Positions 1,286 through 20,078 of a DNA stretch of 20,534 nucleotides are shown piece by piece. Within the stretch, counting starts at the first letter, position 1; each line of letters starts with the position of its first letter. The notes beneath the pieces are model-generated. The model was given only the letters and a program-made list of their open reading frames with translations, had not been told where the DNA came from and ran no database searches. Position numbers and translations under genes: made by a program. This stretch comes from a virus (lineage: Duplodnaviria > Heunggongvirae > Uroviricota > Caudoviricetes). The DNA is taken from IMG/VR virus record IMGVR_UViG_2737471824_000003, one strand, 5' to 3'.

Positions 1286-1500
1286 AACCGCAGCACGTTC
1301 TTGCTTAAGACGTGCTGCGGCATAATCCCAATGATTACTCCCTGACAGAGTTCGTAGGCCACTCAATATCAGGTGCAGTTGATGTATCAACACGGTTCAG
1401 CAACACCCGATACTTTTTCCAGGCTTCCAGCAATGAGGTTTCTTCCTCCGTTGCAATTTCCAGATCTGCAGCATCCTGAAGCGGCGCAATATGCTCACTG
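1286..1500. repeat. direct repeat copy B (3' end of intact tfa plus terminator hairpin)
   Basis: Partner of 236-451. Confidence 0.75.
1288..1320 (-). terminator. stem-loop downstream of tfa (11-bp perfect stem, 11-nt loop)
   Basis: ccgcagcacgt/acgtgctgcgg perfect inverted repeat immediately 3' of the tfa stop on the minus strand and 3' of the MTase stop on the plus strand. The T-tract is weak, so possibly bidirectional or Rho-assisted. Confidence 0.45.
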
Positions 1501-1919
1501 GCTACCTGCATCAGGTTGTTTTTTGTTTCTTCCGCCTCCCGGATCCGGAACAGTTTTTCTGCTTCCGTATCCTTCACCCAGGCTGTGCCGTTCCACTTCT
1601 GAAACTCCCCTTCCGGCGATAACCAGGTAACATTTTCCGGTAACGGACCGAGTTCAGAAATAAATAACTCGTCCCCTGACGCTACGTCATAAACCGTTTT
1701 CCCCCGATGGTCTTCAACGAGATGCCACGATGCCTCATCACTGTTGAAAACAGCCACAAAGCCAGCAGCAATATCTGGTGGTGCAATATCGGTACTGTTT
1801 GCTGGCAGACCTGTATGAGGCGGAATATATGCGTCACCTTCACCAATAAATTCATTAGTTCCGGCCAGCAGATTATAAATTTTTATGGTCCGTGCTTGTT
1901 CACTCATTCTGAATGCCAT
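1335..1919 (-). CDS. tfa: tail fiber assembly protein Tfa (194 aa)
   Basis: Near-identical from N to C terminus to the lambda Tfa as I recall it ([49 protein letters not shown]...), same length. The ATG overlaps the stf stop (TAATG). Confidence 0.95.
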
Positions 1920-6766: not shown

Positions 6767-7228
6767 CTATCTGCACTGCTCATTAATATACTTCTGGGTT
6801 CCTTCCAGTTGTTTTTGCATAGTGATCAGCCTCTCTCTGAGGGTGAAATAATCCCGTTCAGCGGTGTCTGCCAGTCGGGGGCTGGTTGCATTATCCACGC
6901 CGGAGGCGGTGGTGGCTTCACGCACTGACTGACAGACTGCTTTGATGTGCAACCGACGACGACCAGCGGCAACATCAGCGCGCAGAGTTTCATTTTCAGC
7001 TTTCGCATTGGCTAATTCTCTCGAGTACTTTGCATCGAGTGCAGCAACATCACGCTGACGCTGCTGCATGTCAGCGATGGTGGCGATCGACTGCTTCAGC
7101 TCACTGACTTTTTTATCACGCTGTTCTTTGTAGGCGATGGCGTTATCACGGTAATGATTGACCGCCCACGACAGGCAGACGATGATGCAGATAACCAAAG
7201 CATAAATAATCGCGGCGACTCTGCTCAC
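6767..7228 (-). CDS. rz: i-spanin Rz (153 aa from GTG 7228; track ORF extends to TTG 7243)
   Basis: Matches lambda Rz (..[34 protein letters not shown]...[63 protein letters not shown]). The GTG start overlaps the endolysin stop (GTGA). Confidence 0.9.
6826..7008 (-). CDS. rz1: o-spanin Rz1 lipoprotein (60 aa), embedded in the +1 frame of Rz
   Basis: [55 protein letters not shown]: lipobox plus proline-rich core as in lambda Rz1; nested inside Rz. Confidence 0.9.
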
Positions 7229-7758
7229 TGCTCTATCCCCCAACAGGCTAATGCGCTTTCCTGGTCACGACGAATAACCTGTCCATAGCAGTTATTTGAA
7301 CGTATGCGGCAATCGCGCCCACCATCTTTTATCCACCAGCGAATCGCCTCGCATGCGCCCTTACGATCACCGGCATTCAGCCGCTTATAAAACGTCGACG
7401 GGAAACACTTACCGGGGCCAATGTTATAGGGACAGAATGACGCTATACCCGCTTTTTGTGGTTCGGTCAGTAGTACTTTAATATTGCGCTCCACCCATGC
7501 CAGCGCCTTATCACGCTCAATGGCGTTGACCTGGTCGCATTTTTCCTTCGACAGTTTCATACCGGGAAAAACGGGTTTTCCATCCACTATCGTGGCACCC
7601 CGACAGATGGTCCAGATGCCGGACCCATCGCGGTATGCCGTTGTGTGGTTACCTTCTTTTTCATCCAGAAACTGGTCGAGAATATCAGGCGCGGGCGCAC
7701 CGACGGCAATCAGTGCCAGAACGGCAGCCGACAGGCCGTATCTGATTTTTGCGTTCAT
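7225..7758 (-). CDS. R: SAR endolysin (phage lysozyme, P21 R-like), 177 aa
   Basis: N-terminal signal-anchor-release segment ([18 protein letters not shown]) followed by the T4-lysozyme-like catalytic triad context (E..D..T: [22 protein letters not shown]). Directly followed by Rz/Rz1. Confidence 0.9.
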
Positions 7759-7821
7759 GGATATTTATCAGGATTTATCGGTTTCTGCCCACGGACAGGT
7801 TTATCTGTTCCGGTCAGTGAC

Positions 7822-8172
7822 TTAAGGTTGTGATTCCGGAGGAGTCTTCAGAGAACCAGTAATTCTTCCCGGTAGCTTTCCTTTGTAGGTTATCCATACA
7901 TTCTGCGCCTCTAAAATTACGGGGCGCTTTTCCGGCGACTGCTCATCCCCTTCACATAACCCGGCAGCAACATCCAGGAAGACCTGTCTGATGCTCATTC
8001 TGGCTGCTGCCTCATAAAACTCCAGCGCGGCACCTTCAACACGGTCCAGCGAGATGTCCAGGTCAAAAATTTCACCGTCAAAGCGTTTTTTGTCCCGCAA
8101 CGCTAAAGTTACCGTAACTTTATTCTCAAAATTGCGGATCCCTTTCACAATCAGTTCATAGTTTTGAGTCAT
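7822..8172 (-). CDS. hypothetical protein between holin and endolysin (possibly DUF1327/YdfR-like), 116 aa
   Basis: Complete ORF with ATG and an upstream GGGGAG. Its position matches ydfR in K-12 Qin (essQ-ydfR-rrrQ). Assignment is by position and vague sequence recollection only. Confidence 0.45.
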   Translation of the reverse strand: MTQNYELIVKGIRNFENKVTVTLALRDKKRFDGEIFDLDISLDRVEGAALEFYEAAARMSIRQVFLDVAAGLCEGDEQSPEKRPVILEAQNVWITYKGKLPGRITGSLKTPPESQP

Positions 8173-8176
8173 TGAA

Positions 8177-8392
8177 TTACTCTCCCCGTGCCGCCTTACG
8201 ACGGTCCTCTCTGATTTTGAAATACAGGTTAGTCAGATATGTCAGCAGCCCAAACAGCAGACTCCCCAGCACGCCTATTGCCGCCCACTGAGACGGGGAA
8301 ACCCTGTCCAGCAACTGCAGGAACCAGTAGCCCGTTCCCACCGCTGACGTGGTGTATGACACACCTGTTGTGATTTTTTCCATCTGGTCCAT
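8177..8392 (-). CDS. S: pinholin (phage 21 S21-like) with dual-start motif, 71/68 aa
   Basis: [71 protein letters not shown] closely resembles P21 S21. Two Met codons three codons apart (8392 and 8383), as in holin/antiholin pairs. The track ORF (to 8497) is over-extended upstream. Confidence 0.85.
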
Positions 8393-8699
8393 ACCCCGTC
8401 TCCCGTTATCCGGAAGCTGACAACAATAAAAAAGCCACCAGTTAACTACTGATGGCTCTGATAACTCATGCAAGCGTCTCAGACGATCCACTGACACTAC
8501 CGGTGAGTTTAACGATACCTTCCATTTGACTGGCTCACTTTTTATGATGATGCCGGTGTATTTATCTCCAGCACCAGACTTTCTATCTCAACGCCATACG
8601 TTGCATTTTTGGTAATATCCGTCAGCGTCAGTGCATTTAGTCCCACTGCCAGACCGTCTTTTATGGCCTGGAATGCCGGGCCAGTACGATGACGTAGTA

Positions 8700-8888
8700 T
8701 CACTCCGGCTCAGTTGCACCACTGACCACCACATCACCTTCTGCTGCAATCGCCTGCATCAGGGTATAAGGGGTTATGGCCACCGGACTACCAAACGGCT
8801 GCCAGCCCTCTTTCAGTTTATGTGTCAGCTTTTCCGCAAGATCTGACGGCGCCGCCGCCCTGACAACATCATAGTGTTTAAATGCCAT
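8700..8888 (-). CDS. DUF1737-like small protein (62 aa)
   Basis: MAFKHYDVVRAA.PSDLAEKL...KEGWQPFGSPV... pattern recalled from DUF1737 proteins that often sit near lambdoid lysis genes. Start taken at ATG 8888. Confidence 0.5.
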   Translation of the reverse strand: MAFKHYDVVRAAAPSDLAEKLTHKLKEGWQPFGSPVAITPYTLMQAIAAEGDVVVSGATEPE

Positions 8889-9148
8889 GGTTCTTTCCAC
8901 CATCTGAAAAATAATTCTTTAAAATACCTGACATGTAATACAGAAAAAACACAAAACCATACCTTAAATAAAAACTTGATTATCAAGCAGATATGCATGG
9001 ATAAACTACAAGACGAGATATAAACCACCCTGCATTTAAATAAACAATAAACAACATCAGAAAAATAATTCTGCTCTATGGTTTACATTCAAAAATATCA
9101 TTTATACTTTTCAGAACATCACCAGCAAGGCATAAACAAGGAAACTAA

Positions 9149-9484
9149 ATGAAGTGGATTGTGATTGATACAGTTATCCAGCCATCATGCGGAATATCTT
9201 TTTCAGTCATATGGAGTAAAGTAAAATTAATAATCTGGTATCAATCGGATGCTTTCTTACCTCCTGAAAGTATATTTACACTGACTCACACAGGTATCAT
9301 GCTCAATAACAAAGTGCTACCTGTAACCATTTACAACGTAGTACCATTCAATAAAACATTCTGGAATTTAATCAAAAACAGCCAGGAATGCCCTACAAAT
9401 ACAGATAACGTATTGAATGAATGCTTTAATAACCGTTGCATTCTGCAAATATGTCCTTATGGACTAAAACAACAAAGTCCATAA
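9149..9484 (+). CDS. hypothetical protein, 111 aa, AT-rich cargo gene with rare-codon bias
   Basis: ATG preceded by AAGGA (caaggaaactaaATG). Six Cys. Five AUA (rare Ile) codons among 111. On the strand opposite to the late operon, inside the AT-rich island between the tRNAs and the lysis genes. No recognisable family. Confidence 0.45.
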
Positions 9485-9518
9485 GGAGTTTACTCACATC
9501 TGACAAAATCAATATAAA

Positions 9519-9540
9519 CAGCCCCTCCGGAGAGGGGCTG
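9519..9540 (-). terminator. Rho-independent terminator (9-bp perfect stem, 4-nt loop, T-rich tail on minus strand)
   Basis: cagcccctc-cgga-gaggggctg. On the minus strand it is followed by TTTATATTGATTTT. Sits between the convergent cargo ORFs. Confidence 0.5.
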
Positions 9541-9931
9541 GAGAGTGGCGCTATGTGCCATTGCATGGTGCCGGGTGCCTCCCGGTGAATTCAGTACCAG
9601 CACCTGAATCCGCGATTATCCCATATACCTACTCGCTGATTGCCCCTCCGCACAGGGGGATTCACCATGCCAGTTTCTTTTAACAAACTCCCCGCAAACC
9701 AGACAACAGTCAACCGCCTGAATTGTGAAGTATTTAAAAATTTCTCCCGCTAACTGATACCCGGCTAACAGTCTGGCGTTTTCTTTTTCAGCAACGGGAA
9801 AGCAACAACCACCACACCCGCCACCAGCACACTGTCAGCCAGCACTGACATTATCCGGCTGCTGCAATGCCATTCACAAAAACAGTAAGCAATCACTTTT
9901 TACCGTAACAGGTGATAATCCAGATATGTAT

Positions 9932-10285
9932 CTACCCCAGATGAGTAATCCGAAGTTCATCCATACCACAGGTCCTGGCTATTCTGTTGTACTCCTGAAC
10001 AAGAGCAAATAATTCTGAATTAGCAACCATGAACTCATCGCAAACCCTCTGTATAGCATCACTATTCAGAATAATAACGTCTCTTCCCGAAAGACGATCA
10101 GGAGCACAGAACAAAACTGTCAAACGGCTGAAGGCCTTTGCTCGTGCTGCATTGACTATATCAATACGCTGCCTAAGGATGAAACACCCCGACGCCTCAT
10201 CAATATTCACTCTACCCACACCATATGAATGATAAATATTTAATGCTGAAAAAACCATTAGACCGTATAACAAACACTCAATCAA
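9932..10285 (-). CDS. hypothetical protein (117 aa from TTG 10285; first ATG at 10258 gives 108 aa); possibly degenerate
   Basis: Only long ORF in this part of the island, with protein-like composition (..VLFCAPDRLSGRDVIILNSDAIQRVCDEFMVANSELFALVQEYNRIAR..). Neither candidate start has a convincing SD. No family recognised. Confidence 0.35.
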   Translation of the reverse strand: MIECLLYGLMVFSALNIYHSYGVGRVNIDEASGCFILRQRIDIVNAARAKAFSRLTVLFCAPDRLSGRDVIILNSDAIQRVCDEFMVANSELFALVQEYNRIARTCGMDELRITHLG

Positions 10286-10311
10286 TACTTAACAGAACTT
10301 TTATTTTTGAC

Positions 10312-10326
10312 AAACATATTATGTTT
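10312..10326. promoter_or_regulatory. 15-bp perfect palindrome AAACATATTATGTTT (candidate operator) in the promoter region of the 9932-10285 ORF
   Basis: Arms aaacata/tatgttt verified by reverse complement. Embedded in a longer imperfect dyad (ttgacaaacatattatgttttcaa) between the tRNA-Arg gene and the ORF. Confidence 0.35.
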
Positions 10327-10395
10327 TCAACAATATCCTGAGCCAGGTATATTCCAGTATAAGGCTCTGCCGGAAGGAATCTGGAAGAATGAATA

Positions 10396-10472
10396 TGGCG
10401 CGCTGTACTGGATTCGAACCAGTGACCGATTGCTTAGAAGGCAATTGCTCTGTCCGGCTGAGCTAACAACGC
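10396..10472 (-). tRNA. tRNA-Arg (anticodon UCU), 77 nt including CCA
   Basis: Reverse complement folds as a cloverleaf: acceptor GCGTTGT/ACAGCGC (one G-U pair), D-stem GCTC/GAGC, anticodon stem ATTGC/GCAAT with loop CTTCTAA, T-arm ACTGG-TTCGAAT-CCAGT, 3' GCCA. Differs from chromosomal argU as recalled, so phage-encoded. Confidence 0.9.
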
Positions 10473-10572
10473 TGAATACCGATAATGGACCGCCATCGGG
10501 GACCCGCCCCCGCACCAACAACCCTGTTATCGTGTCGTCTGCTCTTCCTGATAAGCTAATGGCGGTTTGTGA

Positions 10573-10648
10573 TGGTGGCCCTTGCTGGATTTGAACCAGC
10601 GACCTGGCGATTATGAGTCGCTCGCTCTCACCACTGAGCTAAAGGGCC
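10573..10648 (-). tRNA. tRNA-Ile2 (anticodon CAU, lysidine type; ileX/ileZ-like), 76 nt including CCA
   Basis: Reverse complement GGCCCTTTAGCTCAGTGGTGAGAGCGAGCGACTCATAATCGCCAGGTCGCTGGTTCAAATCCAGCAAGGGCCACCA: perfect 7-bp acceptor stem, anticodon loop CTCATAA, T-loop TTCAAAT. Very close to E. coli ileX as recalled. An initiator or elongator Met identity is not excluded from sequence alone. Confidence 0.85.
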
Positions 10649-10687
10649 GGGAGCAGAATAATAACGGTCCGTAATTAATTCCGCAAT

Positions 10688-10711
10688 AAAAAACCCGCTC
10701 GGCGGCGGGTT
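10688..10711 (-). terminator. candidate tR' terminator downstream of Q
   Basis: On the minus strand: aacccgc-(loop)-gcgggtt followed by TTTTTT, about 50-80 nt downstream of the candidate late promoter and upstream of the tRNAs. Confidence 0.5.
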
Positions 10712-10758
10712 GTAGAAACTCTTCTAACGTCAGGCATAAAAAGCCCATCATTATGACG

Positions 10759-10786
10759 AATTTACCACAGATTCCGGAAAAATCAA
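10759..10786 (-). promoter_or_regulatory. candidate late promoter pR' (qut region)
   Basis: On the minus strand: TTGATT (-35), 16-nt spacer, TG-n-TAAATT (extended -10), immediately 3' of the Q stop as in lambdoid late regions. Confidence 0.4.
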
Positions 10787-10791
10787 CCTTG

Positions 10792-11613
10792 TTACCTAGT
10801 TACCTTTTTTAACTGCCGCTCAGCCCATGCTTCTTCAATATCAAACCGGGTCACCAGCGCATCATAGAATTTCTTAACTGTTTTTTCCCATGACGCGCGT
10901 GTTATCTGGTTTGTCACCTCGCATATAGCATTAAATGCCTCCGTTGATGGTAGTCTTTCATAGCCACGACCACCACAACGCTGGCAGTCTCTGATAACAG
11001 GCATACCACGTTTTACCGACTCTTCACGGTGAATGGCGACACCACGCCCACGGCAATCCTTACAGGCGGTGGAAACCTCACCCTTTCCGCCACACTCCGG
11101 ACAGGCAACTTTTACCACCTCCCTGACTTTTTTCCATTCTTCCCAGTAAGACGGATACACACCTTTCGTACACTTTGCCCATACCGGCGGCTTACCATCC
11201 GGATACTGGACCTTGTTTGTAAAAACTATGCTTTCAATAAATTTTTCCCCATAGCAACAAGGGCACTGCTTTTTACTCGCTGCGCTGCGGGCATAATCCT
11301 CAAAAGCATACGAAGCCATAATGCGCATCACTACCGGTTTTATTTCTGCCGGAAGTTTTCTCAACGCCGCCACACGATCGCACCGACTGAGTGCATAATC
11401 TGCCAGTAATTCTGTTGCCCGCGCCCTGTCATTCATACTGATGCCCATTTTCCCCAGGAACGCAGAAAAACCCATCTCAGCCCGATTCTGTGTCATGCCC
11501 TGCGCGGCCATCACATCAGTGATACTCAGCGCATCTTTTGACGTTGAGGCCGATGCATCGGTCAGGCCAGGGGATTTTGGGGAGTAGTATTTCGGTAAAT
11601 CTTCCAGTTTCAT
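10792..11613 (-). CDS. Q: late-gene antiterminator Q (Phage_antitermQ-type), 273 aa
   Basis: N-terminus MKLEDLPKYYSPKSP... and multiple CxxC zinc motifs (CPCCYG, CPECGGKGE, CKDCRGRG, CQRCGGRG). Positioned immediately upstream of the promoter/terminator/tRNA/lysis block and downstream of rusA. Confidence 0.75.
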   Translation of the reverse strand: MKLEDLPKYYSPKSPGLTDASASTSKDALSITDVMAAQGMTQNRAEMGFSAFLGKMGISMNDRARATELLADYALSRCDRVAALRKLPAEIKPVVMRIMASYAFEDYARSAASKKQCPCCYGEKFIESIVFTNKVQYPDGKPPVWAKCTKGVYPSYWEEWKKVREVVKVACPECGGKGEVSTACKDCRGRGVAIHREESVKRGMPVIRDCQRCGGRGYERLPSTEAFNAICEVTNQITRASWEKTVKKFYDALVTRFDIEEAWAERQLKKVTR

Positions 11614-11627
11614 TTTTTGACCTGCTC

Positions 11628-11990
11628 TTAATGCATTATGGGGTAAATCTTCACCCCCAGACGTCCACCAGATACTGGCTGACCACGAACGATATTGATT
11701 TCATCAAACTGCTCATCGTCCATTAACACTCCCGCATGCGTCAGCGCATCCAGCGGTGCTTTCAGGATATTGTCCAGGTCGCGACGACGCTTATCCGGTG
11801 GCTCTGCAATCACCTTTATCGCCAGCCTTCCGGACAGGTTTAATTTCAGCCGCTGCTGGCGAACAATTAGCACCACATCACGGCGATAACGCTTTCCGGC
11901 CTCCGAGATGAAATACGTATTGCCATGACGTCGCCAGTAGGTATTCACCGTCGGCGGGTAAGGCAAAACAAATTCTATGCGTTCAGTCAT
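11628..11990 (-). CDS. rusA: Holliday junction resolvase RusA (120 aa)
   Basis: Conserved core ..PPDKRRRDLDNILKAPLDALTHAGVLMDDEQ.. (RusA catalytic Asp cluster). Typical nin-region position upstream of Q. Confidence 0.9.
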   Translation of the reverse strand: MTERIEFVLPYPPTVNTYWRRHGNTYFISEAGKRYRRDVVLIVRQQRLKLNLSGRLAIKVIAEPPDKRRRDLDNILKAPLDALTHAGVLMDDEQFDEINIVRGQPVSGGRLGVKIYPIMH

Positions 11991-13049
11991 TCATGCTTTC
12001 CACTTCAGGACACCCGAATTTCTCGCGTGCATTAAAAAACGAATCAGCAACAACAGCTGGCTGCCGTGTTTTTCTTCAAAATCTTTTACCCCGGCGTGCA
12101 GTTCGTTATGACATTTACGGCACAGCGGAATAACAAACAAATCATCAGCCTTTGTTCCCATACCTCCCAGGCCATGACCAATGATGTGATGCGGATCATC
12201 TGCCTGATTACCGCACGTCATGCATTTCTGCGTTTTTACCCAGCGCGTGTATACAGGCATCTCTTCCCGTTGTGGTTTCTGGCGCTGGAGATACTGAGCC
12301 GGAGACTCCGGATCAACGGCGATGCTTACTAACGTCTTTTCCTGGAGTGGGGGCTGTTGCTGGTGGACGTGAAGTGGCAGCGCAATATTTTTTGTGCGCT
12401 GCTTCAGTATGCTGGTGGCAGTCTGTTCTCCCGGTACGATGTCACTCTCACGGTATACGGAGCGGATTTTTTCCACCGGTAATCCCAGTGAACGACACAA
12501 TACAGACTCCGGAAGCGCATCAGCCACCTGATTGCAGACCGCCCACCAGGATAATTCGGCCAGCGATAACTCCCTCTCCTGCGTACCGCTGATTGCGTGA
12601 CGGATGACGTCAATCATCCATGCTGACAAGTTTTGGTGAGCAAGTTGCTCAAGTGATTCTGAGGTCTGGTCACGCAACTGGTTGTCGCAGTGCCAGCACA
12701 ACACCATTGCGCCGGTACCATAACGGTGAATGACGGTTTCACTGTGGTGATAATCACCGTGTGGCCACTGGCAGGATTTAATATGGCGCAACAGCCAGTC
12801 AGACAGTGCACCAGCGCCGCCAGCAGCACGAATCACACGCTCATTGCTGAAAAATGGCAGTAATGATTTATCCTCCGCCAGCGGCTGGCGAACGGCAGGG
12901 ACGACTCCGGATGGCAGGCCGCACATGCTTTTCGGTTCCGGCTCCACCAGCACTCGAGGATTATGAAATATCTGTATGGATTCACGGCCCGGCTTAAGGA
13001 CCACCAGCCCAAGCTCAGGCACCAGAACAGGTCTAAGTAATACCCGCAC
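11991..13049 (-). CDS. DUF968 family protein (YdfU-like), 352 aa, with C-terminal HNH-like zinc motif
   Basis: C-terminus CMTCGNQADDPHHIIGHGLGGMGTKADDLFVIPLCRKCHNELH. Size and position (between the hok region and rusA/Q) match ydfU of Qin. GTG start at 13049 has GGAGG 4 nt upstream and is coupled to the upstream stop; an internal ATG at 12926 is an alternative. Confidence 0.7.
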   Translation of the reverse strand: MRVLLRPVLVPELGLVVLKPGRESIQIFHNPRVLVEPEPKSMCGLPSGVVPAVRQPLAEDKSLLPFFSNERVIRAAGGAGALSDWLLRHIKSCQWPHGDYHHSETVIHRYGTGAMVLCWHCDNQLRDQTSESLEQLAHQNLSAWMIDVIRHAISGTQERELSLAELSWWAVCNQVADALPESVLCRSLGLPVEKIRSVYRESDIVPGEQTATSILKQRTKNIALPLHVHQQQPPLQEKTLVSIAVDPESPAQYLQRQKPQREEMPVYTRWVKTQKCMTCGNQADDPHHIIGHGLGGMGTKADDLFVIPLCRKCHNELHAGVKDFEEKHGSQLLLLIRFLMHARNSGVLKWKA

Positions 13050-13050
13050 G

Positions 13051-13323
13051 TTACCTCCAGATCCGTTGCTGGAAAGTGCGGGACGGACGTGGTGGGCGTT
13101 CGGAATAAGGCAGCCTGACAGAGATTATCCAGTGCCGATAGTCGAGACTGAGAGCTTTCTTAACCTCGAACCCGCGCCTGCGGTAAGAATGAATCAGCCA
13201 TTCGGCCTGTTCTTCAGTACATGGTGGGTGTTGGTACCAGTCGGTTTTAAATGCGTGTGAACGCCGCTCATGCCGGATGGCAAGGTCGGTATCAGAATTG
13301 TGAAATTTGGTTTTGTGCGCCAT
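13051..13323 (-). CDS. hypothetical protein, 90 aa (positional equivalent of rem in Qin)
   Basis: Complete ATG-initiated ORF between hok and the DUF968 gene. No motif recognised. Confidence 0.45.
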   Translation of the reverse strand: MAHKTKFHNSDTDLAIRHERRSHAFKTDWYQHPPCTEEQAEWLIHSYRRRGFEVKKALSLDYRHWIISVRLPYSERPPRPSRTFQQRIWR

Positions 13324-13395
13324 CTGTTTTCTCTGCTGGCGCAGCAGGTGTCAGGTGTTCAGGCTGACGTGCGAATTGTAAACCAGAATGCCAGG

Positions 13396-13422
13396 AAAAA
13401 ACAAAACCCGCCGAAGCGGGTT
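13396..13422 (-). terminator. Rho-independent terminator downstream of hok
   Basis: On the minus strand: aacccgc-ttcg-gcgggtt followed by TTTGTTTTTT. Confidence 0.5.
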
Positions 13423-13490
13423 AAGTGCGGGTGCGTTGAGGATGCCTGACACATCAGAGGTGGCGAGGGATTTCTCCCCCGCCAGGTCTC

Positions 13491-13646
13491 TTACTCCTCA
13501 GGTTCGTAAGCTGTGAAGACAGCGACCTCCGTCTGGCCGGTTCGGATTCGTACCTCGCAGAGGTCTTTCCTCGTTACCAGTGCCGTCACTATGACGGTTA
13601 AACAGATGACGATCAGGGCGATTAACATCGCCTTTTGCTGCTTCAT
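13491..13646 (-). CDS. hokD: Hok/Gef-family type I toxin (HokD/RelF-like), 51 aa
   Basis: Translates to MKQQKAMLIALIVICLTVIVTALVTRKDLCEVRIRTGQTEVAVFTAYEPEE, a canonical Hok (TM helix plus conserved Cys, C-terminal periplasmic tail). Below the ORF-track size cutoff. Confidence 0.9.
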   Translation of the reverse strand: MKQQKAMLIALIVICLTVIVTALVTRKDLCEVRIRTGQTEVAVFTAYEPEE

Positions 13647-13904
13647 AGCCTGCTTCTCCTTGACCTTTCGGTCCGTAAGAGGCTAATCTCTATGTGTCGC
13701 ATAGATATGGCCTCAGATTAATGTTAAGCGTCTTGCAGGACGCGTAATGTTAACTGGGGCTTTTCTCTATCTGCCTTTTGGTGTTCATGCCTGAGACAGA
13801 TAGCCTCAAGCACCCGCAGTAATTCTACTTAACTAAGATTTCCCCGCAAACCGTTTTTGTCCGGCACAGTAAATATCCAACTAAACCAATGGCGTTCGCT
13901 GTAT

Positions 13905-14084
13905 TTACCGCCAGTATTCAATGCACATGACCGCCATGAACACCCCTAAAAAAAGGGCATTTATATATCCAAATATTAATATCAAAACATCAACTTTTTC
14001 TATATACCTTGCTGTGAAGATGATGGGCATACATGATACGAACAACCAGAACGCAACAAACAAAAACTGCAATGCGTTTTTCAT
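13905..14084 (-). CDS. small predicted two-helix membrane protein (59 aa from ATG 14084)
   Basis: ATG preceded by AGGAGG-aata. Product MKNALQFLFVAFWLFVSCMPIIFTARYIEKVDVLILIFGYINALFLGVFMAVMCIEYWR has two hydrophobic segments. Very AT-rich. Immediately upstream of the hok locus. Confidence 0.4.
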   Translation of the reverse strand: MKNALQFLFVAFWLFVSCMPIIFTARYIEKVDVLILIFGYINALFLGVFMAVMCIEYWR

Positions 14085-14313
14085 TATTCCTCCTACAATC
14101 AATGTGCAATTACATTTAAACACACCTCAATTTGGCCGGACATATAAATATCTAAACCAGAAAAAATCACTTACATAGCGTTACAAACTCTTTAGTCTAA
14201 ATATTCATCGTAAAACATTCCCCATACTTATCAGCCCGTTCTGCGCCAGGTAGCTCATTGCCTTATCTGGGAATCTGTAATCAGGTTTCCGGATGCTGGT
14301 GGATTTTCGCGTT

Positions 14314-14571
14314 TTAGTTGTTCATAAAAGTGCACAGCTTTAACCAGTTCTTCTGATGTAACCGGGACTGGCGGGGCAGTGAATAAGGCCTGAATTTCAT
14401 AGTTCGGCCTGTCGTTACAATCCTCTTTTTTCGGTACATATTTCCAGTCACCAGACCACTACTTCCCCTGAAAGTCCGTAACGCCTTTTTTTTCACGTAG
14501 CGATATCGCCATGCCACTGTTTTTGCTTGCCCCGCCGTTTCATGCCCTTCCTGATAATTAACCTCGCTCAT
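14314..14571 (-). CDS. basic small protein (85 aa in the 0 frame) containing an A_AAA_AAG slippery heptamer; a -1 shift would extend it to ~105 aa (stop at 14255-14257)
   Basis: ATG overlaps the stop of the upstream 58-aa gene (ATGA). In-frame heptamer A AAA AAG at 14425-14431 (minus-strand sense). The -1 frame is closed by TAG 11 codons upstream of the site and open for 56 codons downstream, with a more protein-like composition (..TSEELVKAVHFYEQLKRENPPASG..). Confidence 0.45.
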   Translation of the reverse strand: MSEVNYQEGHETAGQAKTVAWRYRYVKKKALRTFRGSSGLVTGNMYRKKRIVTTGRTMKFRPYSLPRQSRLHQKNWLKLCTFMNN

Positions 14572-14744
14572 TCATCGCCCCACTCATCACAATATGCTTC
14601 GACCGGAGTTTTTCCTGCTTCATAATCATCACGCCATGCTTCAGCATCAGCAGCACTGCCACCACGTAACTCTGCATAGTCCATTAACAGTTCATGCCAT
14701 TCTTCAAAACTGACGTTGTATTTAGTTGAACCAAAATCAGCCAT
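14568..14744 (-). CDS. small acidic protein (58 aa)
   Basis: ATG with GAGGAAG upstream. Product MADFGSTKYNVSFEEWHELLMDYAELRGGSAADAEAWRDDYEAGKTPVEAYCDEWGDE. Its stop overlaps the start of the next gene. Below the ORF-track cutoff. Confidence 0.4.
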   Translation of the reverse strand: MADFGSTKYNVSFEEWHELLMDYAELRGGSAADAEAWRDDYEAGKTPVEAYCDEWGDE

Positions 14745-14919
14745 TTTGTTCTTCCTCTTCGTCTTTTATTTCGTGATATGAGTAATTGCAGTAGTTAAAG
14801 AAAATATCTTTTGCTTCGTCATGTATTTCATCAGGCGTCGCATCATCATCCACTTCGAATTCATCCTCGAAATCTCCACCGGCTATTCCCGTTTCAATAA
14901 TTATTTTAAACTTTCGCAT
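14737..14919 (-). CDS. small acidic protein (60 aa)
   Basis: ATG-initiated; strongly acidic (DFEDEFEVDDDATPDEIHDEAKD...DEEEEQNG). A GNRA-type hairpin (14927-14942) lies just upstream. Confidence 0.45.
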   Translation of the reverse strand: MRKFKIIIETGIAGGDFEDEFEVDDDATPDEIHDEAKDIFFNYCNYSYHEIKDEEEEQNG

Positions 14920-15012
14920 TTAACTACCGCCCTTTCGGGCGGCCTCCTGATGTTCTGAGGGTGCAGAAATCCCTCCGGTTAAGGATTAAATTTTTAACAG
15001 AGCTAAATTTAA

Positions 15013-15426
15013 TTATTCAGTTCTGGATTTTGTCGCCCTGCGTATCCGCGCTTTCGCGTTACGCTCAATCTGAATTAGCTTTTCTATATTTTTTCGCCTT
15101 TCCCGCTCCTCCTGACGCAAGAGCCTTACATCATCTGCCAGTCTGGTTTCTCTTTTCGCCACAGAGAGCATCCAGTCAAATGGCTCCACAACTGCACCGC
15201 AGATTTTACAGCGGACCTGACGCTCTTTTTCGTCAACCCGGACAGAGGCGTGATGACAATATGGTCTTTCCGATGGCTCATAAAGAAAATTAACCTGATT
15301 ACGAGGGTCATCCTCTTTTACCGGAAATAAAACGATATTGCTTAACTCATCCTCTGGTTTTATTTCCATGCTCCTCTCCTTTGATGCGAATGCCAGCGGT
15401 AATTGAAGCCTGATAGCTAATTTCAC
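15013..15426 (-). CDS. hypothetical protein with zinc-ribbon-like CHH...CKIC motif (137 aa from GTG; 118 aa from ATG 15369)
   Basis: GTG 15426 is preceded by AGGAGG (7-nt spacer) inside a repeated GGTAATTTTCAGGAGG element. Charged/coiled C-terminus. Confidence 0.5.
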   Translation of the reverse strand: MKLAIRLQLPLAFASKERSMEIKPEDELSNIVLFPVKEDDPRNQVNFLYEPSERPYCHHASVRVDEKERQVRCKICGAVVEPFDWMLSVAKRETRLADDVRLLRQEERERRKNIEKLIQIERNAKARIRRATKSRTE

Positions 15427-15849
15427 TCACAGTACCGCCTCCTGAAAATTACCCTGATAGAAAGCCAGTACACGCTGCATAGCTTCACTCTTCCGGCACT
15501 CGCGACAGATTATGTTTAGGCGACTGTCGTAGCGACGTATTTCTCCGTCAGGTAACGACCAGATAAGGTCCGGATCAACCACAGCAGGTTTCTTCACCTT
15601 TGCCCTCGAGAGTTTTTTGCGGGCGTTTTGCCAGTCCTTACGCGCCTGTTCAGAGGGGAATAACCCGTAGCCGGAGTTGTATACATCGCCGCTGGCAACC
15701 AGCTCTCTTGCGAGAACGCTCATCAGATATCTTGTCGCACCTGTCTTGACTTCCAGTTGCCGTAACGTCTCACGCCCACTCTGGCGTACGAGTTCAACAA
15801 CCTGCCCTTTAATTTTTTCTCGCTCTTCTTGTGTAAAAACTTTTGCCAC
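15427..15849 (-). CDS. hypothetical protein, 140 aa (possible DNA-binding accessory protein of the replication module)
   Basis: GTG start preceded by the same GGTAATTTTCAGGAGG element. No Walker motif, so not a DnaC-type loader. Confidence 0.5.
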   Translation of the reverse strand: MAKVFTQEEREKIKGQVVELVRQSGRETLRQLEVKTGATRYLMSVLARELVASGDVYNSGYGLFPSEQARKDWQNARKKLSRAKVKKPAVVDPDLIWSLPDGEIRRYDSRLNIICRECRKSEAMQRVLAFYQGNFQEAVL

Positions 15850-15889
15850 AAGCCCTCCTGAAAATTACCTCATGACCAGAAATCAACAC

Positions 15890-16966
15890 TTACCCCCTGA
15901 AGCCCGGTGGAATTTCGGTATCCGGTTCAGAAATATGATTCACACAACGCTGGTTGTTCGTGCCGCTTACCGGGAGCAGCCAGGGGTTTTCAAAATTCCG
16001 GTCCGGTCCAAAAAACGTCGTCGCTCGCTGAACAAATTCCGTTCCCGTTTTCCCGGTAGCCGCAAGGTATCTTGCGTAACGCCTCACGCCATCCAGCATG
16101 GCCTCTGGTGGCACCCCCTCGCGTAATCTGGCTTTCCAGGCACTGAAAGCGGATTTCTTCGGGTTTGCCCCGGCACGCAACGGGTATTCCCGCCAGACCT
16201 GTTCGAACACATCAGGATAATCCACTCGTCCCATAGGCTGCCCGGTGTTTTCCGGGACTACCCGATCGGCTTCCCGCTGAATGGCGGAATCGGCTTCAGG
16301 CTGCTGAAGTTGGTGTGATTGCTCCTGCCTTGCGGTCATCACCTGCTGCACAGCGCCCGAATCGGCTTTCAGCGCATACGCTGAATCGGCTTCCGGTGTC
16401 GTGCCTGCGGGCTGGCCAGGAGTGACGGTCTGAACATCCCCTGCCTGGTTCGTGGCGTTTTTTACGCCATGGACCATAGTGTTTTGATCTTCTTGATCTG
16501 TATCTTTATCTGTATCTTTATCTGTCGTGACTCGTCGTGACATGTGCGTGACATTTCGTGACTCGCCGTGACAATCTCCATTTTGTTCCCGCTTTCTTTC
16601 CCTCTCTCGCTGCGCCCTCTTGCGCTCTGCCGGAGATTTTGCGGTTTGCGAAATATTGCCGTTGTCCTCTTTCAGCACCTGGCGTTTTTCCCATCCAGTG
16701 ATTAAATCACCATCAAGTATCCGCCCCTGCATCGTCTGCAAAATTGAATCAATTACCTCTTCTGTCACGTCGAGCGCACTTGCCAAATCTTCTGTCGTGA
16801 CATCAATGTGACCTCGCGTGACATTTCGTGACGCGCTCACCAGGAGGTGGATATACACTGCCATCACTGTTGCAATTGACTGCCCTGACACCCTGGCAAT
16901 TGTTCGCCACTTAGGGTCATTTGGCATGTCATGCCATAATCTGAGCCAGGCGTTAGCCATACTCAC
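15890..16966 (-). CDS. replication initiation protein (lambda O / YdaU-like replisome organiser), 358 aa, with the origin iterons inside the gene
   Basis: Position immediately downstream of the cro/cII-like genes. Helical-phase CGTGAC iterons plus an AT-rich tract lie inside the coding sequence, as in lambda O/ori. Conserved C-terminal block (FEQVWREYP..KKSAFSAWKARL). Start may be ATG 16960 rather than GTG 16966. Confidence 0.65.
   Translation of the reverse strand: MSMANAWLRLWHDMPNDPKWRTIARVSGQSIATVMAVYIHLLVSASRNVTRGHIDVTTEDLASALDVTEEVIDSILQTMQGRILDGDLITGWEKRQVLKEDNGNISQTAKSPAERKRAQRERERKREQNGDCHGESRNVTHMSRRVTTDKDTDKDTDQEDQNTMVHGVKNATNQAGDVQTVTPGQPAGTTPEADSAYALKADSGAVQQVMTARQEQSHQLQQPEADSAIQREADRVVPENTGQPMGRVDYPDVFEQVWREYPLRAGANPKKSAFSAWKARLREGVPPEAMLDGVRRYARYLAATGKTGTEFVQRATTFFGPDRNFENPWLLPVSGTNNQRCVNHISEPDTEIPPGFRG
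16525..16572. repeat. iteron cluster 1: five (T/G/C)CGTGAC repeats at 10-11 bp phasing, adjacent to an AT-rich tandem repeat (16486-16524)
   Basis: CGTGAC at 16526, 16536, 16547, 16557 and 16567. Flanked at lower coordinates by gatcttcttgatctgtatctttatctgtatctttatctg (GATC sites, tandem tctgtatcttta). Confidence 0.6.
16795..16832. repeat. iteron cluster 2: four (C/T)GTGAC repeats at ~10 bp phasing within the initiator N-terminal coding region
   Basis: tcgtgac 16795, tgtgac 16807, gcgtgac 16816, tcgtgac 16826; an inverted gtcacg copy at 16764. Confidence 0.5.
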
Positions 16967-17031
16967 CTCTTCTGATACCGAATCTTTTTACTCACGAGTT
17001 GCCGGAAGTGATTCGATATGGCTATTATCAC

Positions 17032-17457
17032 TCAATGCACTGCCACAGCATTTCCTGCCGGGCCACCACGGTTCATCTGATTGAAACCGGCGATTGCCAC
17101 TGCGACAAAATCATCAGCGTCTCTCACCAGTCGCTCCCGCGTCTCCACCAGCTCCCGAAAATAAGCTGAACTGTGGCTGCGCATTCTGGCCACCAGCAAA
17201 GGTGGCATTGCCTTTTCGATCGCTGGTAACAACGCCTGAATTTTTTCAACTGCATCAGGGGTATCTTTCTCTACCCAGCGGAAAATTTTCTGGGTATTGC
17301 GAGCCAGGGCTTCCGGATGGCTGTCGTCATACAGTTCTGGGAACGTCATACCCAGTTCAAAATAAGCCTGGGTTATTTCAGCTGCCGGAACTTTTTCACC
17401 GTCCGGATGCGCCCAGGCATTCATCGCCATGCGGATGTGTTCATGCTTGATTTTCAT
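17032..17457 (-). CDS. ydaT: YdaT-like protein (CII functional analogue of Rac/CP-933P-type immunity regions), 141 aa
   Basis: N-terminus MKIKHEHI.. and position directly after the cro-like gene match YdaT as recalled. Its start overlaps the 3' end of the ydaS-like ORF. Confidence 0.65.
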   Translation of the reverse strand: MKIKHEHIRMAMNAWAHPDGEKVPAAEITQAYFELGMTFPELYDDSHPEALARNTQKIFRWVEKDTPDAVEKIQALLPAIEKAMPPLLVARMRSHSSAYFRELVETRERLVRDADDFVAVAIAGFNQMNRGGPAGNAVAVH

Positions 17458-17722
17458 GAATCAAGCTCCTAGAAAGTGGTTGTGTTAACGTTTTGGTATC
17501 TTCCAGCTCGGGCCAAATATTCATCCAATCAAAAGGCCTTAGTTGCTGACGTGTAACTTCACCATTACTGGCTCGCTCAATAAGGACACATAACGATGCC
17601 CCTAACACTTGACCTTTACTCAATGCCTTTCTTAGATAACCGATGCTGGTACCACACTCGCATGCAAACATACGCTGTTCATCTGACGAAAGAGAATTGA
17701 GAAATATTCTTAATTCTTCCAT
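17441..17722 (-). CDS. ydaS: Cro-like HTH regulator (YdaS/DUF1019-like), 93 aa
   Basis: HTH region ..CECGTSIGYLRKALSKGQ.. and the ..GEVTRQQLRPFDW.. tail match the YdaS pattern. Divergent from the repressor gene across an operator-rich intergenic region. Confidence 0.7.
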   Translation of the reverse strand: MEELRIFLNSLSSDEQRMFACECGTSIGYLRKALSKGQVLGASLCVLIERASNGEVTRQQLRPFDWMNIWPELEDTKTLTQPLSRSLIHENQA

Positions 17723-17751
17723 AGCTACTCCTTAGTAAACACAGCAAAGAA

Positions 17752-17787
17752 TACCCACAGGTAAACAAAAGTCAATACCCACAGGTT
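17752..17787. promoter_or_regulatory. OR-like operator region: two TACCCACAGGT(A/T) dyads plus a ggtaaacaa/ttgtttacc inverted repeat between the cro-like and repressor genes
   Basis: TACC-N4-GGTA half-site symmetry at 17752-17763 and 17776-17787. The same dyad family recurs downstream of the repressor gene. Confidence 0.55.
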
Positions 17788-17822
17788 GTTTACCTTGCGG
17801 TAATCGCATCTATTATTTACCT

Positions 17823-18242
17823 ATGGACAAATATGAATTTAGACGACAGCAACTCATCAAAATTCGTGATGAGAAATGCGATGGTAAAGCGGTTAACGTG
17901 GCCAGAAAGATCGGGCGCGAGCCTTCTTATGTATCAAGAATGTTGTACCCAGAGGGGAAAAAGGGAAAAAAACGGATCGCTGATGATATGGTGGAGATTA
18001 TCGAAGAGTCCTTTGGGTTACCCCGGGGATGGATGGATGGTATCGTTTCATCATCAACGAACACAGCCTCCAGTTATGAAACAAGGGTTCTAACGCCACG
18101 ACAACGTATTTTTTTAGATCTCTTAGACGAACTGCCAGAAAGTGAAGCGGATAAATTATTAAAAACTCTTGAAGAGAAAAAACAGTATTACAATATGATC
18201 TACGAAGAAATCCGTAAAAAGAAAGCACAAAACGCATCATAG
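17823..18242 (+). CDS. prophage repressor (CI-like, HTH_XRE-type), 139 aa
   Basis: HTH ..KAVNVARKIGREPSYVSRMLY.. near the N-terminus. Divergently transcribed from the cro-like gene and flanked on both sides by related palindromic operators. Confidence 0.7.
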   Translation: MDKYEFRRQQLIKIRDEKCDGKAVNVARKIGREPSYVSRMLYPEGKKGKKRIADDMVEIIEESFGLPRGWMDGIVSSSTNTASSYETRVLTPRQRIFLDLLDELPESEADKLLKTLEEKKQYYNMIYEEIRKKKAQNAS

Positions 18243-18281
18243 CTCACCAAACAACTAGTCACCAGTTAAGACACCGCGAAA

Positions 18282-18321
18282 ATTTACCCATGGGTATTTA
18301 CTTTTTAAATACCTATGGGTA
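18282..18321 (+). promoter_or_regulatory. OL/pL-like promoter-operator for the rightward dicB operon
   Basis: Perfect palindrome TACCCATGGGTA (18285-18296) and TACCTATGGGTA (18310-18321) bracket a candidate promoter (-35 TTTACC, -10 TTAAAT/TAAATA). Confidence 0.5.
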
Positions 18322-18507
18322 TCCTTCTTTTCATGCCAACCCACCCCGCCCCACAGAATGCAGGGCAATACTTCGAGTTACCAGGCAGTGGTCAGGGGTT
18401 AAGTAGCCAGCCCGAGGCGTAAGAACATGACGGCAGGGTTCAACTTTAATAACTATGCAGCAGGTTTTTGTTCCGCTACCCCGGCGTTAAGGGGAAATGA
18501 GGTCAGC

Positions 18508-18663
18508 ATGGATACTATCGATCTTGGCAACAACGAATCTCTGGTGTACGGCGTGTTTCCAAACCAGGACGGCACCTTCACCGCAATGACGTATACAAAA
18601 AGCAAAACGTTTAAAACCGAAAATGGTGCCCGTCGCTGGCTGGAAAGAAACTCAGGTGAGTGA
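18508..18663 (+). CDS. ydfA: DUF1391 small protein (YdfA/YdaF-like), 51 aa
   Basis: MDTIDLGNNESLVYGVFPNQDGTFTAMTYTKSKTFKTENGARRWLERNSGE, with GAGGT 6 nt upstream. First gene of the dicB-type operon. The track ORF starts upstream at 18427. Confidence 0.7.
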   Translation: MDTIDLGNNESLVYGVFPNQDGTFTAMTYTKSKTFKTENGARRWLERNSGE

Positions 18664-18664
18664 T

Positions 18665-18793
18665 ATGGATTTTGACACAATCATGGAAAAGGCTTACGAA
18701 GAATACTTCGAAGGCCTTGCCGAAGGCGAAGAAGCTCACAGCTTCAACGAATTTAAACAGGCGCTTTCCAGTTCGGCAAAATCTAACGGCTGA
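18665..18793 (+). CDS. ydfB: YdfB-like small protein, 42 aa
   Basis: MDFDTIMEKAYEEYFEGLAEGEEAHSFNEFKQALSSSAKSNG; start 2 nt after the ydfA-like stop (coupled). Below the track cutoff. Confidence 0.55.
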   Translation: MDFDTIMEKAYEEYFEGLAEGEEAHSFNEFKQALSSSAKSNG

Positions 18794-18822
18794 TAAGCGA
18801 AACAGCACCGCGAGGAATCAGT

Positions 18823-19041
18823 ATGCAGAAACGAGAACCCGTCATCATCGCGCCAGACTATACCGATGATGAACTTTATGAGTGGATGCACCAGAAAATT
18901 AATGCAGCGCAGGATCTGAAATGGGCCAATGAAGCCAGGGCTAAGCAGGCTGAAAATCTGTCCGCTCTGGAGCAGGATATCACCAATCTGGAAAAAGCAG
19001 CGGCATTAAGCATTGCCAGAATGATTACATACCCGCGTTAA
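18823..19041 (+). CDS. ydfC: YdfC-like protein, 72 aa
   Basis: ATG with GAGGAA upstream. Its position and size match ydfC of Qin. Confidence 0.55.
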   Translation: MQKREPVIIAPDYTDDELYEWMHQKINAAQDLKWANEARAKQAENLSALEQDITNLEKAAALSIARMITYPR

Positions 19042-19382
19042 TAGCTAACCAACGAAGCTAAGGTTGGTAATTAAGGAGTTCTCCACGGGTGAGGTGGAGT
19101 GCGTGCGCCGGACACGGGTGAGCATCCGGCACTGACAGTTTACTGAAAGGATATTTCCCTGAAAAGTCAGACCATAACGCGAAAGCGCACGGCGAGGTAG
19201 CTGGTTCATAGATAGCCTGTCGTTAAATTTTCGTCGACCGTGCGCTTCCGGTTGTGGCACTCCGCGAAATGGCGCGGCGGTAAGTATGGCGGGGTTATTC
19301 CTTCCCCCGTTGAGGACACCGGGTTGTCAGGTTGACCATACGCTTAAGTGACAACCCCGCTGCAACGCCCTCTGTTATCAAT

Positions 19383-19435
19383 TTTCTGGTGACGTTTGGC
19401 GGTATCAGTTTTACTCCGTGACTGCTCTGCCGCCC
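19383..19435 (+). ncRNA. dicF: DicF small RNA (antisense regulator of ftsZ and other targets), 53 nt
   Basis: Sequence TTTCTGGTGACGTTTGGCGGTATCAGTTTTACTCCGTGACTGCTCTGCCGCCC followed by a T-tract. Matches K-12 DicF as recalled; located between ydfC and dicB. Confidence 0.8.
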
Positions 19436-19609
19436 TTTTTAAAGTGAATTTTGTGATGCGGTGAATGCGGCTGAGCGCACGCGGAACAGTTAAAACCAAA
19501 AACAGTGTTATGGGTGGATTCTCTGTATCCGGCGTTAATTGTTAACTGGTTAACGTCACCTGGAGGCACCAGGCACCGCATCACAAAATTCATTGTTGAG
19601 GACGCGATA

Positions 19610-19798
19610 ATGGAAACGTTATTACCAAACGTTAATACGTCTGAAGGTTGTTTTGAAATTGGTGTCACTATCAGTAACCCTGTATTTACTGAAGATGCCA
19701 TTAACAAGAGAAAACACGAACGGGAGCTATTAAATAAAATATGCATTCTTTCAATGTTGGCCCGTTTACGTCCGATACAAAAAGGATGCTGGCAATGA
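19610..19798 (+). CDS. dicB: cell-division inhibitor DicB (62 aa)
   Basis: METLLPNVNTSEGCFEIGVTISNPVFTEDAINKRK.ERELLNKICI.SMLARLR...KGC.Q matches DicB, with GAGGA upstream. The track ORF (19505) is over-extended. Confidence 0.85.
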   Translation: METLLPNVNTSEGCFEIGVTISNPVFTEDAINKRKHERELLNKICILSMLARLRPIQKGCWQ

Positions 19799-19986
19799 AT
19801 ACAGCATTTGCACTTGTTCTGACAGTTTTTCTTGTTTCCGGAGAGCCAGTTGATATTGCAGTCAGTGTTCACAGGACAATGCAGGAGTGTGTGACTGCAG
19901 CAACCGAACAGAAAATTCCCGGTAACTGTTACCCGGTCGATAAAGTTATTCACCAGGATAATAACGAAATCCCGGCAGGTCTTTAA
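19795..19986 (+). CDS. ydfD: YdfD lysis-associated small membrane protein (63 aa)
   Basis: MNTAFALVLTVFLVSGEPVDIAVSVHRTMQEC.TAATEQKIPGNCYPVDKVIHQDN.EIPAGL. The start overlaps the dicB stop (ATGA). Confidence 0.8.
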   Translation: MNTAFALVLTVFLVSGEPVDIAVSVHRTMQECVTAATEQKIPGNCYPVDKVIHQDNNEIPAGL

Positions 19987-20078
19987 AACAGTTCCGTAAT
20001 AAACATCCGATTTCATTCTTATATGCCAGCAATGGCAGGGATTTGTTCACCCTTAAATCTGTAATGAGGTAAAACAAA

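Follow-up and report, generated by a model that had tools for sequence, protein, structure and literature searches.

The interval 8890-10395 of the 20,534-nt sequence IMGVR_UViG_2737471824_000003 (an IMG/VR virus record of the Caudoviricetes; this whole stretch is called the window in the following) lies in the late region of a Qin-like lambdoid prophage with its late genes on the minus strand, and the best described counterpart of its content is the iraL gene of the uropathogenic Escherichia coli strain CFT073. This gene (locus tag c1429; PMC12890032) is located on the potB island, and its product has been shown experimentally to bind RssB at its N-terminal domain and to stabilise RpoS (Hryckowian et al., 2014; PMC4045071). 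The same family includes IraM of strain K-12 (b1160), which is encoded beside the e14 prophage. IraM binds both domains of RssB and is described as stabiliser of RpoS during Mg2+ starvation, whereas the binding of IraL is limited to the N-terminal domain and its action takes place in log phase (PMC4045071). A further described element of such loci is the small RNA (sRNA) STnc100, which is encoded about 75 nt downstream of stx2B (PMC12370729; PMC12711010), overlaps with the Hfq-binding sRNA EcOnc27/sRNA103 of O157:H7 (PMC12711010), has been detected in outer-membrane vesicles (PMC12370729) and has been related to PasD by Zhu, Shabalina and Storz (bioRxiv 10.64898/2026.05.13.724894). As to the position in the prophage, the same late-operon slot, with Q/tRNAs on one side and the lysis genes on the other, is taken by cspB/cspF in the K-12 prophage Qin and by stx2AB in the Stx2a phages; in the window, the content of this slot is unrelated to either and includes neither a toxin nor a cold-shock gene.

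Taken together, the evidence indicates with a probability of about 0.9 that the interval is an iraL cargo locus of the CFT073 potB type in a Qin-like lambdoid prophage, in which four cassettes independent of each other are combined with the remains of an esterase gene as a mosaic and not as one system. Positions 8890-10400 of the window correspond to positions 1342550-1344070 of the CFT073 genome with 99% identity over the full length, and the backbone of the prophage (6990-20083) is 86-98% identical to that of the CFT073 potB prophage. The order of the elements is also shared: in the CFT073 locus, Q and tRNAs are followed by about 500 bp lacking annotation, by DUF3927, by an IraM-family gene in opposite orientation, by the DUF1737 remnant and by a holin of class II. 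The CFT073 prophage differs in that the insertion sequence IS200 and an additional, third tRNA (tRNA-Arg) are located between Q and the slot, both of which are missing from the window. The whole island is found in 863 of 5426 complete E. coli genomes. The features of the interval and its downstream border are listed here with the evidence behind each of them.

9932-10210, minus strand: 92-aa gene of phrog_2873, most likely with a GTG start at 10210 (selection and homologues; the mechanical reading frame reaches a TTG at 10285)
9765-9896, minus strand: gene for a small hydrophobic DUF3927 protein of 43 aa (Pfam PF13064, phrog_1470 and genome annotation)
9510-9699, minus strand: sRNA gene of the STnc100 family (Rfam RF02076)
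9540-9519, minus strand: strong intrinsic terminator at the 3' end of STnc100 (terminator scan)
9454-9487, plus strand: probable iraL terminator, a perfect 12-bp hairpin spanning the iraL stop codon (RNAfold, -17.5 kcal/mol)
9149-9484, plus strand: iraL, coding for a 111-aa RssB anti-adaptor from the IraM family (NCBIfam and identity to CFT073)
9082-9148, plus strand: iraL promoter and 5' untranslated region (published transcription start and hexamers read from the sequence)
8700-8903, minus strand: DUF1737 reading frame, N-terminal NanS-p remnant (DUF1737, 60.9 bits; positions 1-58 of phrog_143)
8542-8703, minus strand: C-terminal NanS-p remnant (positions 582-632 of 634 of phrog_143)

The plus-strand open reading frame (ORF) is assigned as iraL from the identity of its product and its promoter region. 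The 111-aa product matches the NCBIfam model NF007393 (anti-adapter protein IraM) over residues 1-110 with 162 bits, compared to a cut-off of 121, and the Prokaryotic Genome Annotation Pipeline (PGAP) uses the name IraM for it in a genome identical over the region. In comparison to IraL of CFT073 (c1429, WP_000871291.1), 109 of 111 amino acids (98%) and 333 of 336 nucleotides are identical, the remaining amino acids being affected by two conservative exchanges (V25I and I98T). The identity values to IraM of K-12 and to the iraM-like copy of an Stx2a phage amount to 63% and 73%, respectively, and all five cysteines are conserved. A phmmer search links residues 1-78 to the solved N-terminal domain of IraM (PDB 8twd_A, E 8.7e-32), which is evidence on the level of the sequence. 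The published definition of iraL is based on identities to the CFT073 gene of at least 95% over the whole coding region and at least 96% in the promoter region (PMC4045071), and the locus of the window is above both thresholds, with four mismatches to CFT073 in the 245 nt upstream of the gene. An earlier reading of this DNA from its letters alone (in the following the sequence-only reading) had counted six cysteines in the 111-aa product, which contains five, and had recognised the family of neither convergent ORF; the plus-strand product belongs to IraL, while that of the minus strand is assigned to phrog_2873.

The transcription start of iraL can be placed from published data, since the first 30 nt of the sequence obtained by rapid amplification of 5' cDNA ends (PMC4045071) match exactly to positions 9116-9145, corresponding to a start at A9116. 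By our own reading of the sequence, a -10-like hexamer (TATACT, 9103-9108) is located 7 nt upstream of this start, and a -35-like hexamer (TTTACA) is found at 9082-9087. At the other end of the gene, the hairpin at 9454-9487 encodes QQSP, a C-terminal extension of IraL by four residues relative to IraM, and faces the terminator of STnc100, so that the two form a convergent terminator pair.

From the 98% identity to the CFT073 protein, binding to RssB and stabilisation of RpoS would also be expected of the allele in the window. The gene would be transcribed from its own sigma-70 promoter starting at 9116, and as it points against the late operon, we infer that it is expressed in the lysogen, i.e., from the silent prophage. 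Its product would then bind RssB at its N-terminal domain and prevent RpoS from being handed over to ClpXP, leading to more sigma-S in growing cells, as shown for the CFT073 protein. A prophage moron which raises RpoS in growing cells is relevant to the stress tolerance of extraintestinal E. coli.

Some points weigh against the interpretation as an iraL mosaic locus. The functional equivalence of an allele with the exchanges V25I and I98T to IraL of CFT073 is itself something we infer; the hexamers of the iraL promoter were read by eye, and the spacer of 15 nt between them is short; the independence of the 92-aa gene and DUF3927 as cargo is deduced from their co-occurrence in a handful of loci; and that the minus-strand genes are expressed in the lysogen is put forward as a possibility.

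A view on related loci shows how the slot is composed elsewhere. The sequence-only reading had placed the interval in the moron or cargo slot equivalent to that of stx, and this is literally true, as stx2AB of phage Stx2_EH1910 is located in the same place between the tRNAs and STnc100. The borders of the slot in the Stx2a phages are tRNA-Arg and STnc100, as in the window, and stx2AB is found there in the place of the 92-aa gene and DUF3927 of the window. Likewise, relative to STnc100 and nanS-p, the iraM-like gene of the Stx2a phages (e.g., LC567834) is placed and oriented like iraL in the window. The slots of the compared loci have the following contents.

Window and CFT073: 92-aa gene, DUF3927, STnc100, iraL, nanS-p remnant
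Stx2a phage Stx2_EH1910 (L007): tRNAs, stx2A, stx2B, STnc100, iraM-like gene on the reverse strand, nanS-p, holin
E. coli 07-4299 (L004): AraC regulator, 92-aa gene, five STnc100 copies, intact nanS-p; without an IraM-family gene
ETEC6333 (L005): methyltransferase, 92-aa gene; without STnc100 and without an IraM-family gene
Phage vB_EcoS-640R1 (L008): two STnc100 copies, frameshifted DUF3927, iraL; without the 92-aa gene

As judged from these loci, the slot consists of interchangeable cassettes, namely stx2AB, the AraC regulator plus the 92-aa gene, or the 92-aa gene plus DUF3927, which are arranged in the order tRNA-Arg, variable cargo, STnc100, variable gene on the reverse strand and nanS-p. 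Because the elements assort independently in the related loci, they are regarded as separate morons and not as a module of two genes. The sequence-only reading had seen in the interval the best candidate of the window for an undescribed toxin, defence or host-modulation module, and had raised the question whether the pair travels together across related prophages; in such a module, the two convergent ORFs would work together. The two ORFs are indeed present at 9149-9484 on the plus strand (111 aa) and 9932-10285 on the minus strand (117 aa with a TTG start), convergent and 447 bp apart, and their adjacency in an AT-rich part of the cargo slot together with the occurrence of the whole island in the 863 genomes mentioned above would fit to a joint function. 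However, each of them is found without the other: the loci L007 and L008 contain an IraM-family gene without the 92-aa gene, while in L004, L005, the further locus L002 and a distant lambdoid prophage (L010) the 92-aa gene is present and an IraM-family gene is missing. The numbers of genomes are also unequal, as iraL together with its promoter is covered to at least 80% in 1457 of the 5426 complete genomes (about 27%) and the region of the 92-aa gene in 1183. One of the two ORFs codes for the already characterised IraL, and none of the models of PADLOC matched the 92-aa product, IraL, the DUF3927 protein or the ORF at 8542-8703. A common module of the two ORFs is therefore considered as next to negligible in probability, and what stands of the proposal is that one product is a host-modulation factor, although a described one, with nothing pointing to a toxin or a defence system. 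Both ORFs represent intact cargo genes, and neither turned out as a decayed remnant or as a fragment of a housekeeping or structural gene.

With iraL characterised experimentally and the spacer between the ORFs assigned to curated RNA and protein families, most of the locus is already known, and the residual novelty consists of the 92-aa gene and of STnc100 as boundary of the slot. The minus-strand ORF exists as far as the TTG at 10285, as stated in the sequence-only reading, but its conserved part begins at the GTG at 10210 and comprises 92 codons. Its product matches the profile of phrog_2873 (function unknown) with E 3.2e-57, and no significant match to Pfam or NCBIfam was obtained for the minus-strand ORF; a match to RHIM with E 0.09 was dismissed. 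RefSeq leaves the match without annotation in all 36 high-identity genomes that were listed from the 1183 carriers, and the same applies to CFT073 and to the genome of strain WP2-S18-ESBL-08 (L001), which is identical to the window over the region. This blank, the start codon other than ATG and the missing family matches would be explained if the frame were a chance ORF or a decayed remnant, and deletions or frameshifts do occur in a few clusters of related sequences. The pattern of substitutions argues for a gene instead. In three deep comparisons with homologues of 59-62% identity, the ratio of nonsynonymous to synonymous changes (dN/dS) is 0.26-0.27 at a dS of about 1, with zero insertions or deletions over the core of 92 codons, and the sense frame is the only one without stop codons in all five compared sequences. 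The antisense frame sharing the third codon positions gives a similar dN/dS, and the excess of changes in the third position (36, 33 and 55 changes in the three codon positions) cannot separate the sense frame from this antisense frame; the sense strand is settled by the stop codons in the antisense frame, two of which are present in the window and in L002, and by the conserved lengths and starts of distant homologues. The latter share 21-39% identity, are 91-106 aa long and start at the position corresponding to the GTG at 10210.

An exhaustive profile search against 1.84 billion representatives yielded 21 proteins with E values of at most 1e-3, and a word-indexed protein search found relatives only in E. 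coli and Shigella, including full-length proteins with 55% identity. The members of the clusters are nearly all intact (253, 175, 146 and 370 intact members versus singletons). Furthermore, PGAP does annotate a homologue from ETEC6333 with 62% identity (WP_001017777.1), again with 92 aa and a GTG start, and AlphaFold2 gives a confident model of the product. The non-gene explanation is thus improbable, the 92-aa ORF is judged from its selection and its homologues to be a genuine protein-coding gene, and its omission from RefSeq looks like a systematic annotation gap. All sampled RefSeq genomes with this conserved late-region gene, CFT073 included, lack an annotation for it.

The neighbours of the gene vary between its lineages. 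In one further lineage (L002-L004) the homologue is located downstream of an AraC-type regulator, and in another (ETEC6333) downstream of a DNA methyltransferase. The regulator (241 aa, AraC/HTH_18; L004:2756-3481; L002:164-889) lies upstream of the diverged 92-aa gene at a distance of 22 nt, which suggests a different pairing of cargo. The distant member in the lambdoid prophage L010 is closely preceded by a Q-like antiterminator and a tRNA, while the most distant homologue (L011) has a GerE regulator as neighbour in a context that is not obviously derived from a phage, and yielded no functional lead.

The AlphaFold2 model (predicted local distance difference test score of 83) contains two helices at residues 3-35 and 50-81, and the product is predicted as a cytoplasmic alpha-helical hairpin of a generic kind. 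In a profile search against PDB sequences, the top entries were GapR/UPF0335 (DUF2312) proteins with E values of 0.058-0.19 and positions 4-50 aligned, and the lengths of 92 and 89 aa are similar, raising the question of a distant nucleoid-associated DNA clamp of this type. The hhalign probability amounts to 23% over 48 columns in the N-terminal half only, GapR is missing from the listed top fold matches, and the 92-aa protein is acidic (isoelectric point 5.7) and presumably devoid of the basic DNA-contacting stretch of GapR. A relationship to GapR thus appears very unlikely. A somewhat better, albeit still doubtful, candidate function is that of a new late-expressed effector directed to the host or a phage, which may, e.g., inhibit a host protein or a defence system, or act as partner of the adjacent sRNA or tRNAs. 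This is considered because the gene is unannotated in the sampled genomes, shows purifying selection, takes the position of stx2AB as the first late protein-coding gene after Q and the tRNAs, and recurs at this position in distant lambdoid prophages.

The spacer between the two ORFs had been described in the sequence-only reading as about 450 bp of hairpin-rich DNA with a terminator. The terminator was found (9540-9519, minus strand), and the spacer contains the STnc100 gene and the 43-aa DUF3927 ORF. STnc100 matches the Rfam model RF02076 with 132.4 bits, compared to a gathering score of 47, over the full length of the model (positions 1-206 of 206), and the published quantitative PCR primers for STnc_100 (PMC12370729) match exactly at 9650-9669 and 9577-9596. 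The overall folding energy of 9490-9765 (z = -1.6) is not exceptional by itself, and the identity of the sRNA is accordingly based on the match to the covariance model and not on the free energy. In the Stx2a phage L007, STnc100 is located 75 nt downstream of stx2B; the sRNA gene directly follows the cargo genes in the late region of these prophages, which are stx2AB in the Stx2 phages and the 92-aa gene with DUF3927 here. The DUF3927 ORF matches Pfam PF13064 with 90.6 bits (cut-off 25) and phrog_1470 with E 8.8e-12, is hydrophobic (grand average of hydropathy 1.0) and is annotated by PGAP; its PHROG label 'TciB-like' is an annotation transferred by homology.

The 92-aa gene, DUF3927 and STnc100 have the same orientation, with gaps of 35 nt between the first two and 65 nt between the last two, and share a single terminator, which would agree with one late-expressed cassette as a true equivalent of the stx cargo with a new activity directed to the host, e.g., that of a protein acting with or on the sRNA or the neighbouring tRNAs. 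Their location is exactly that of stx2AB to STnc100, the 92-aa family is again found just downstream of Q and the tRNAs in L010, and helical hairpins also occur as RNA-binding arms, among them the arm of seryl-tRNA synthetase, which is one of the generic fold matches. On the other hand, the three elements are separated in the related loci: L004 and L002 contain the 92-aa gene and STnc100 without DUF3927, L005 and L010 contain the 92-aa gene without STnc100, and L008 contains STnc100 and a frameshifted DUF3927 without the 92-aa gene. A single functional cassette is therefore regarded as unlikely, if less so than the readings of the 92-aa gene as a non-gene or a GapR relative, and the mosaic of independent cassettes is retained.

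Within this mosaic, STnc100 is located at the boundary between cargo cassettes in every locus examined, and may double as a recombination joint besides its role as sRNA gene. Arrays of the element were also observed: E. coli 07-4299 contains five full-length copies in one late-region slot (L004:2167-2379 and L004:4139-5118), four of them head to tail, and phage vB_EcoS-640R1 contains two (L008:2979-3172 and L008:3448-3636). A pseudogene annotated by PGAP as 'hypothetical protein, incomplete' at about 9555-9683 on the plus strand of the identical genome runs antisense to STnc100; it probably represents an artefact of annotation which was spread by the repeats of the sRNA element.

The two remnants at the downstream border represent, as judged from their alignment to phrog_143, the ends of a NanS-p/SASA esterase gene of about 634 codons from which the middle part of about 520 codons was deleted (8542-8903). 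PGAP marks the DUF1737 ORF as an incomplete pseudogene, and positions 8889-8731 of the window share 89% identity with the 5' end of the esterase gene which is intact in L004. An intact enzyme of this type, which would comprise about 634 aa including the N-terminal DUF1737 and an esterase domain, is not encoded at this position. Two weak matches of the DUF1737 remnant to AbiEii models in PADLOC (E 0.0097 and 0.044) were dismissed.

The late region preceding the slot comprises the following features.

11991-13049, minus strand: DUF968 gene (late-gene order)
11628-11990, minus strand: RusA gene (late-gene order)
10792-11613, minus strand: antiterminator gene Q (ORF list and annotation)
10711-10692, minus strand: tR'-like intrinsic terminator with a GC-rich stem of 7 bp and a T tract (terminator scan)
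10573-10648, minus strand: tRNA with a CAT anticodon (Met according to ARAGORN, tRNA-Ile according to PGAP in a near-identical genome)
10396-10472, minus strand: tRNA-Arg(TCT) (tRNA and annotation searches)

The tR'-like terminator is located between the stop codon of Q (10792) and the first tRNA, and has to be passed by Q-modified late transcripts on their way to the slot; weak Rfam matches downstream of Q (isrK, E 0.66; Trp_leader, E 0.026) were taken as the hairpin of this terminator and not as members of the respective families. Downstream of the slot, the DUF1737 ORF is followed by genes for the holin, YdfR, lysozyme and Rz; bor/iss is encoded there on the plus strand. In this arrangement, the 92-aa gene and DUF3927 would be read by Q-antiterminated late transcription, and an additional weak promoter for the minus-strand genes may be present in the AT-rich stretch 10211-10395. 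Upon induction, the Q-modified RNA polymerase would be expected to pass the tR' and STnc100 terminators and to run antisense across iraL.

The base composition had been described as strongly AT-rich over the whole 1.5 kb, which applies to the average of the interval, but not to all of its parts. With 39.4% GC compared to 47.9% for the whole window, the interval is the lowest among 381 sliding windows of 1506 bp. The distribution is patchy, with 28% GC in the promoter and upstream region of iraL, 34% in iraL and 32% upstream of the 92-aa gene, while the central block of STnc100 (55%) and DUF3927 (50%) is not AT-rich.

Some further elements were observed elsewhere in the window. The genome of strain WP2-S18-ESBL-08, which is otherwise 99.99% identical, contains an IS2 insertion (L001:14487-15819) at the position corresponding to about 14372-14376, and the window is without this IS2. 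The tail-fibre region of the prophage contains a full-length match to the Rfam family IS009 (225 bits; 1378-1576, minus strand). The sok antitoxin RNA of a hokD locus (13644-13815, minus strand) and the DicF sRNA (19384-19435, plus strand) are also present, which is consistent with a Qin-like prophage.

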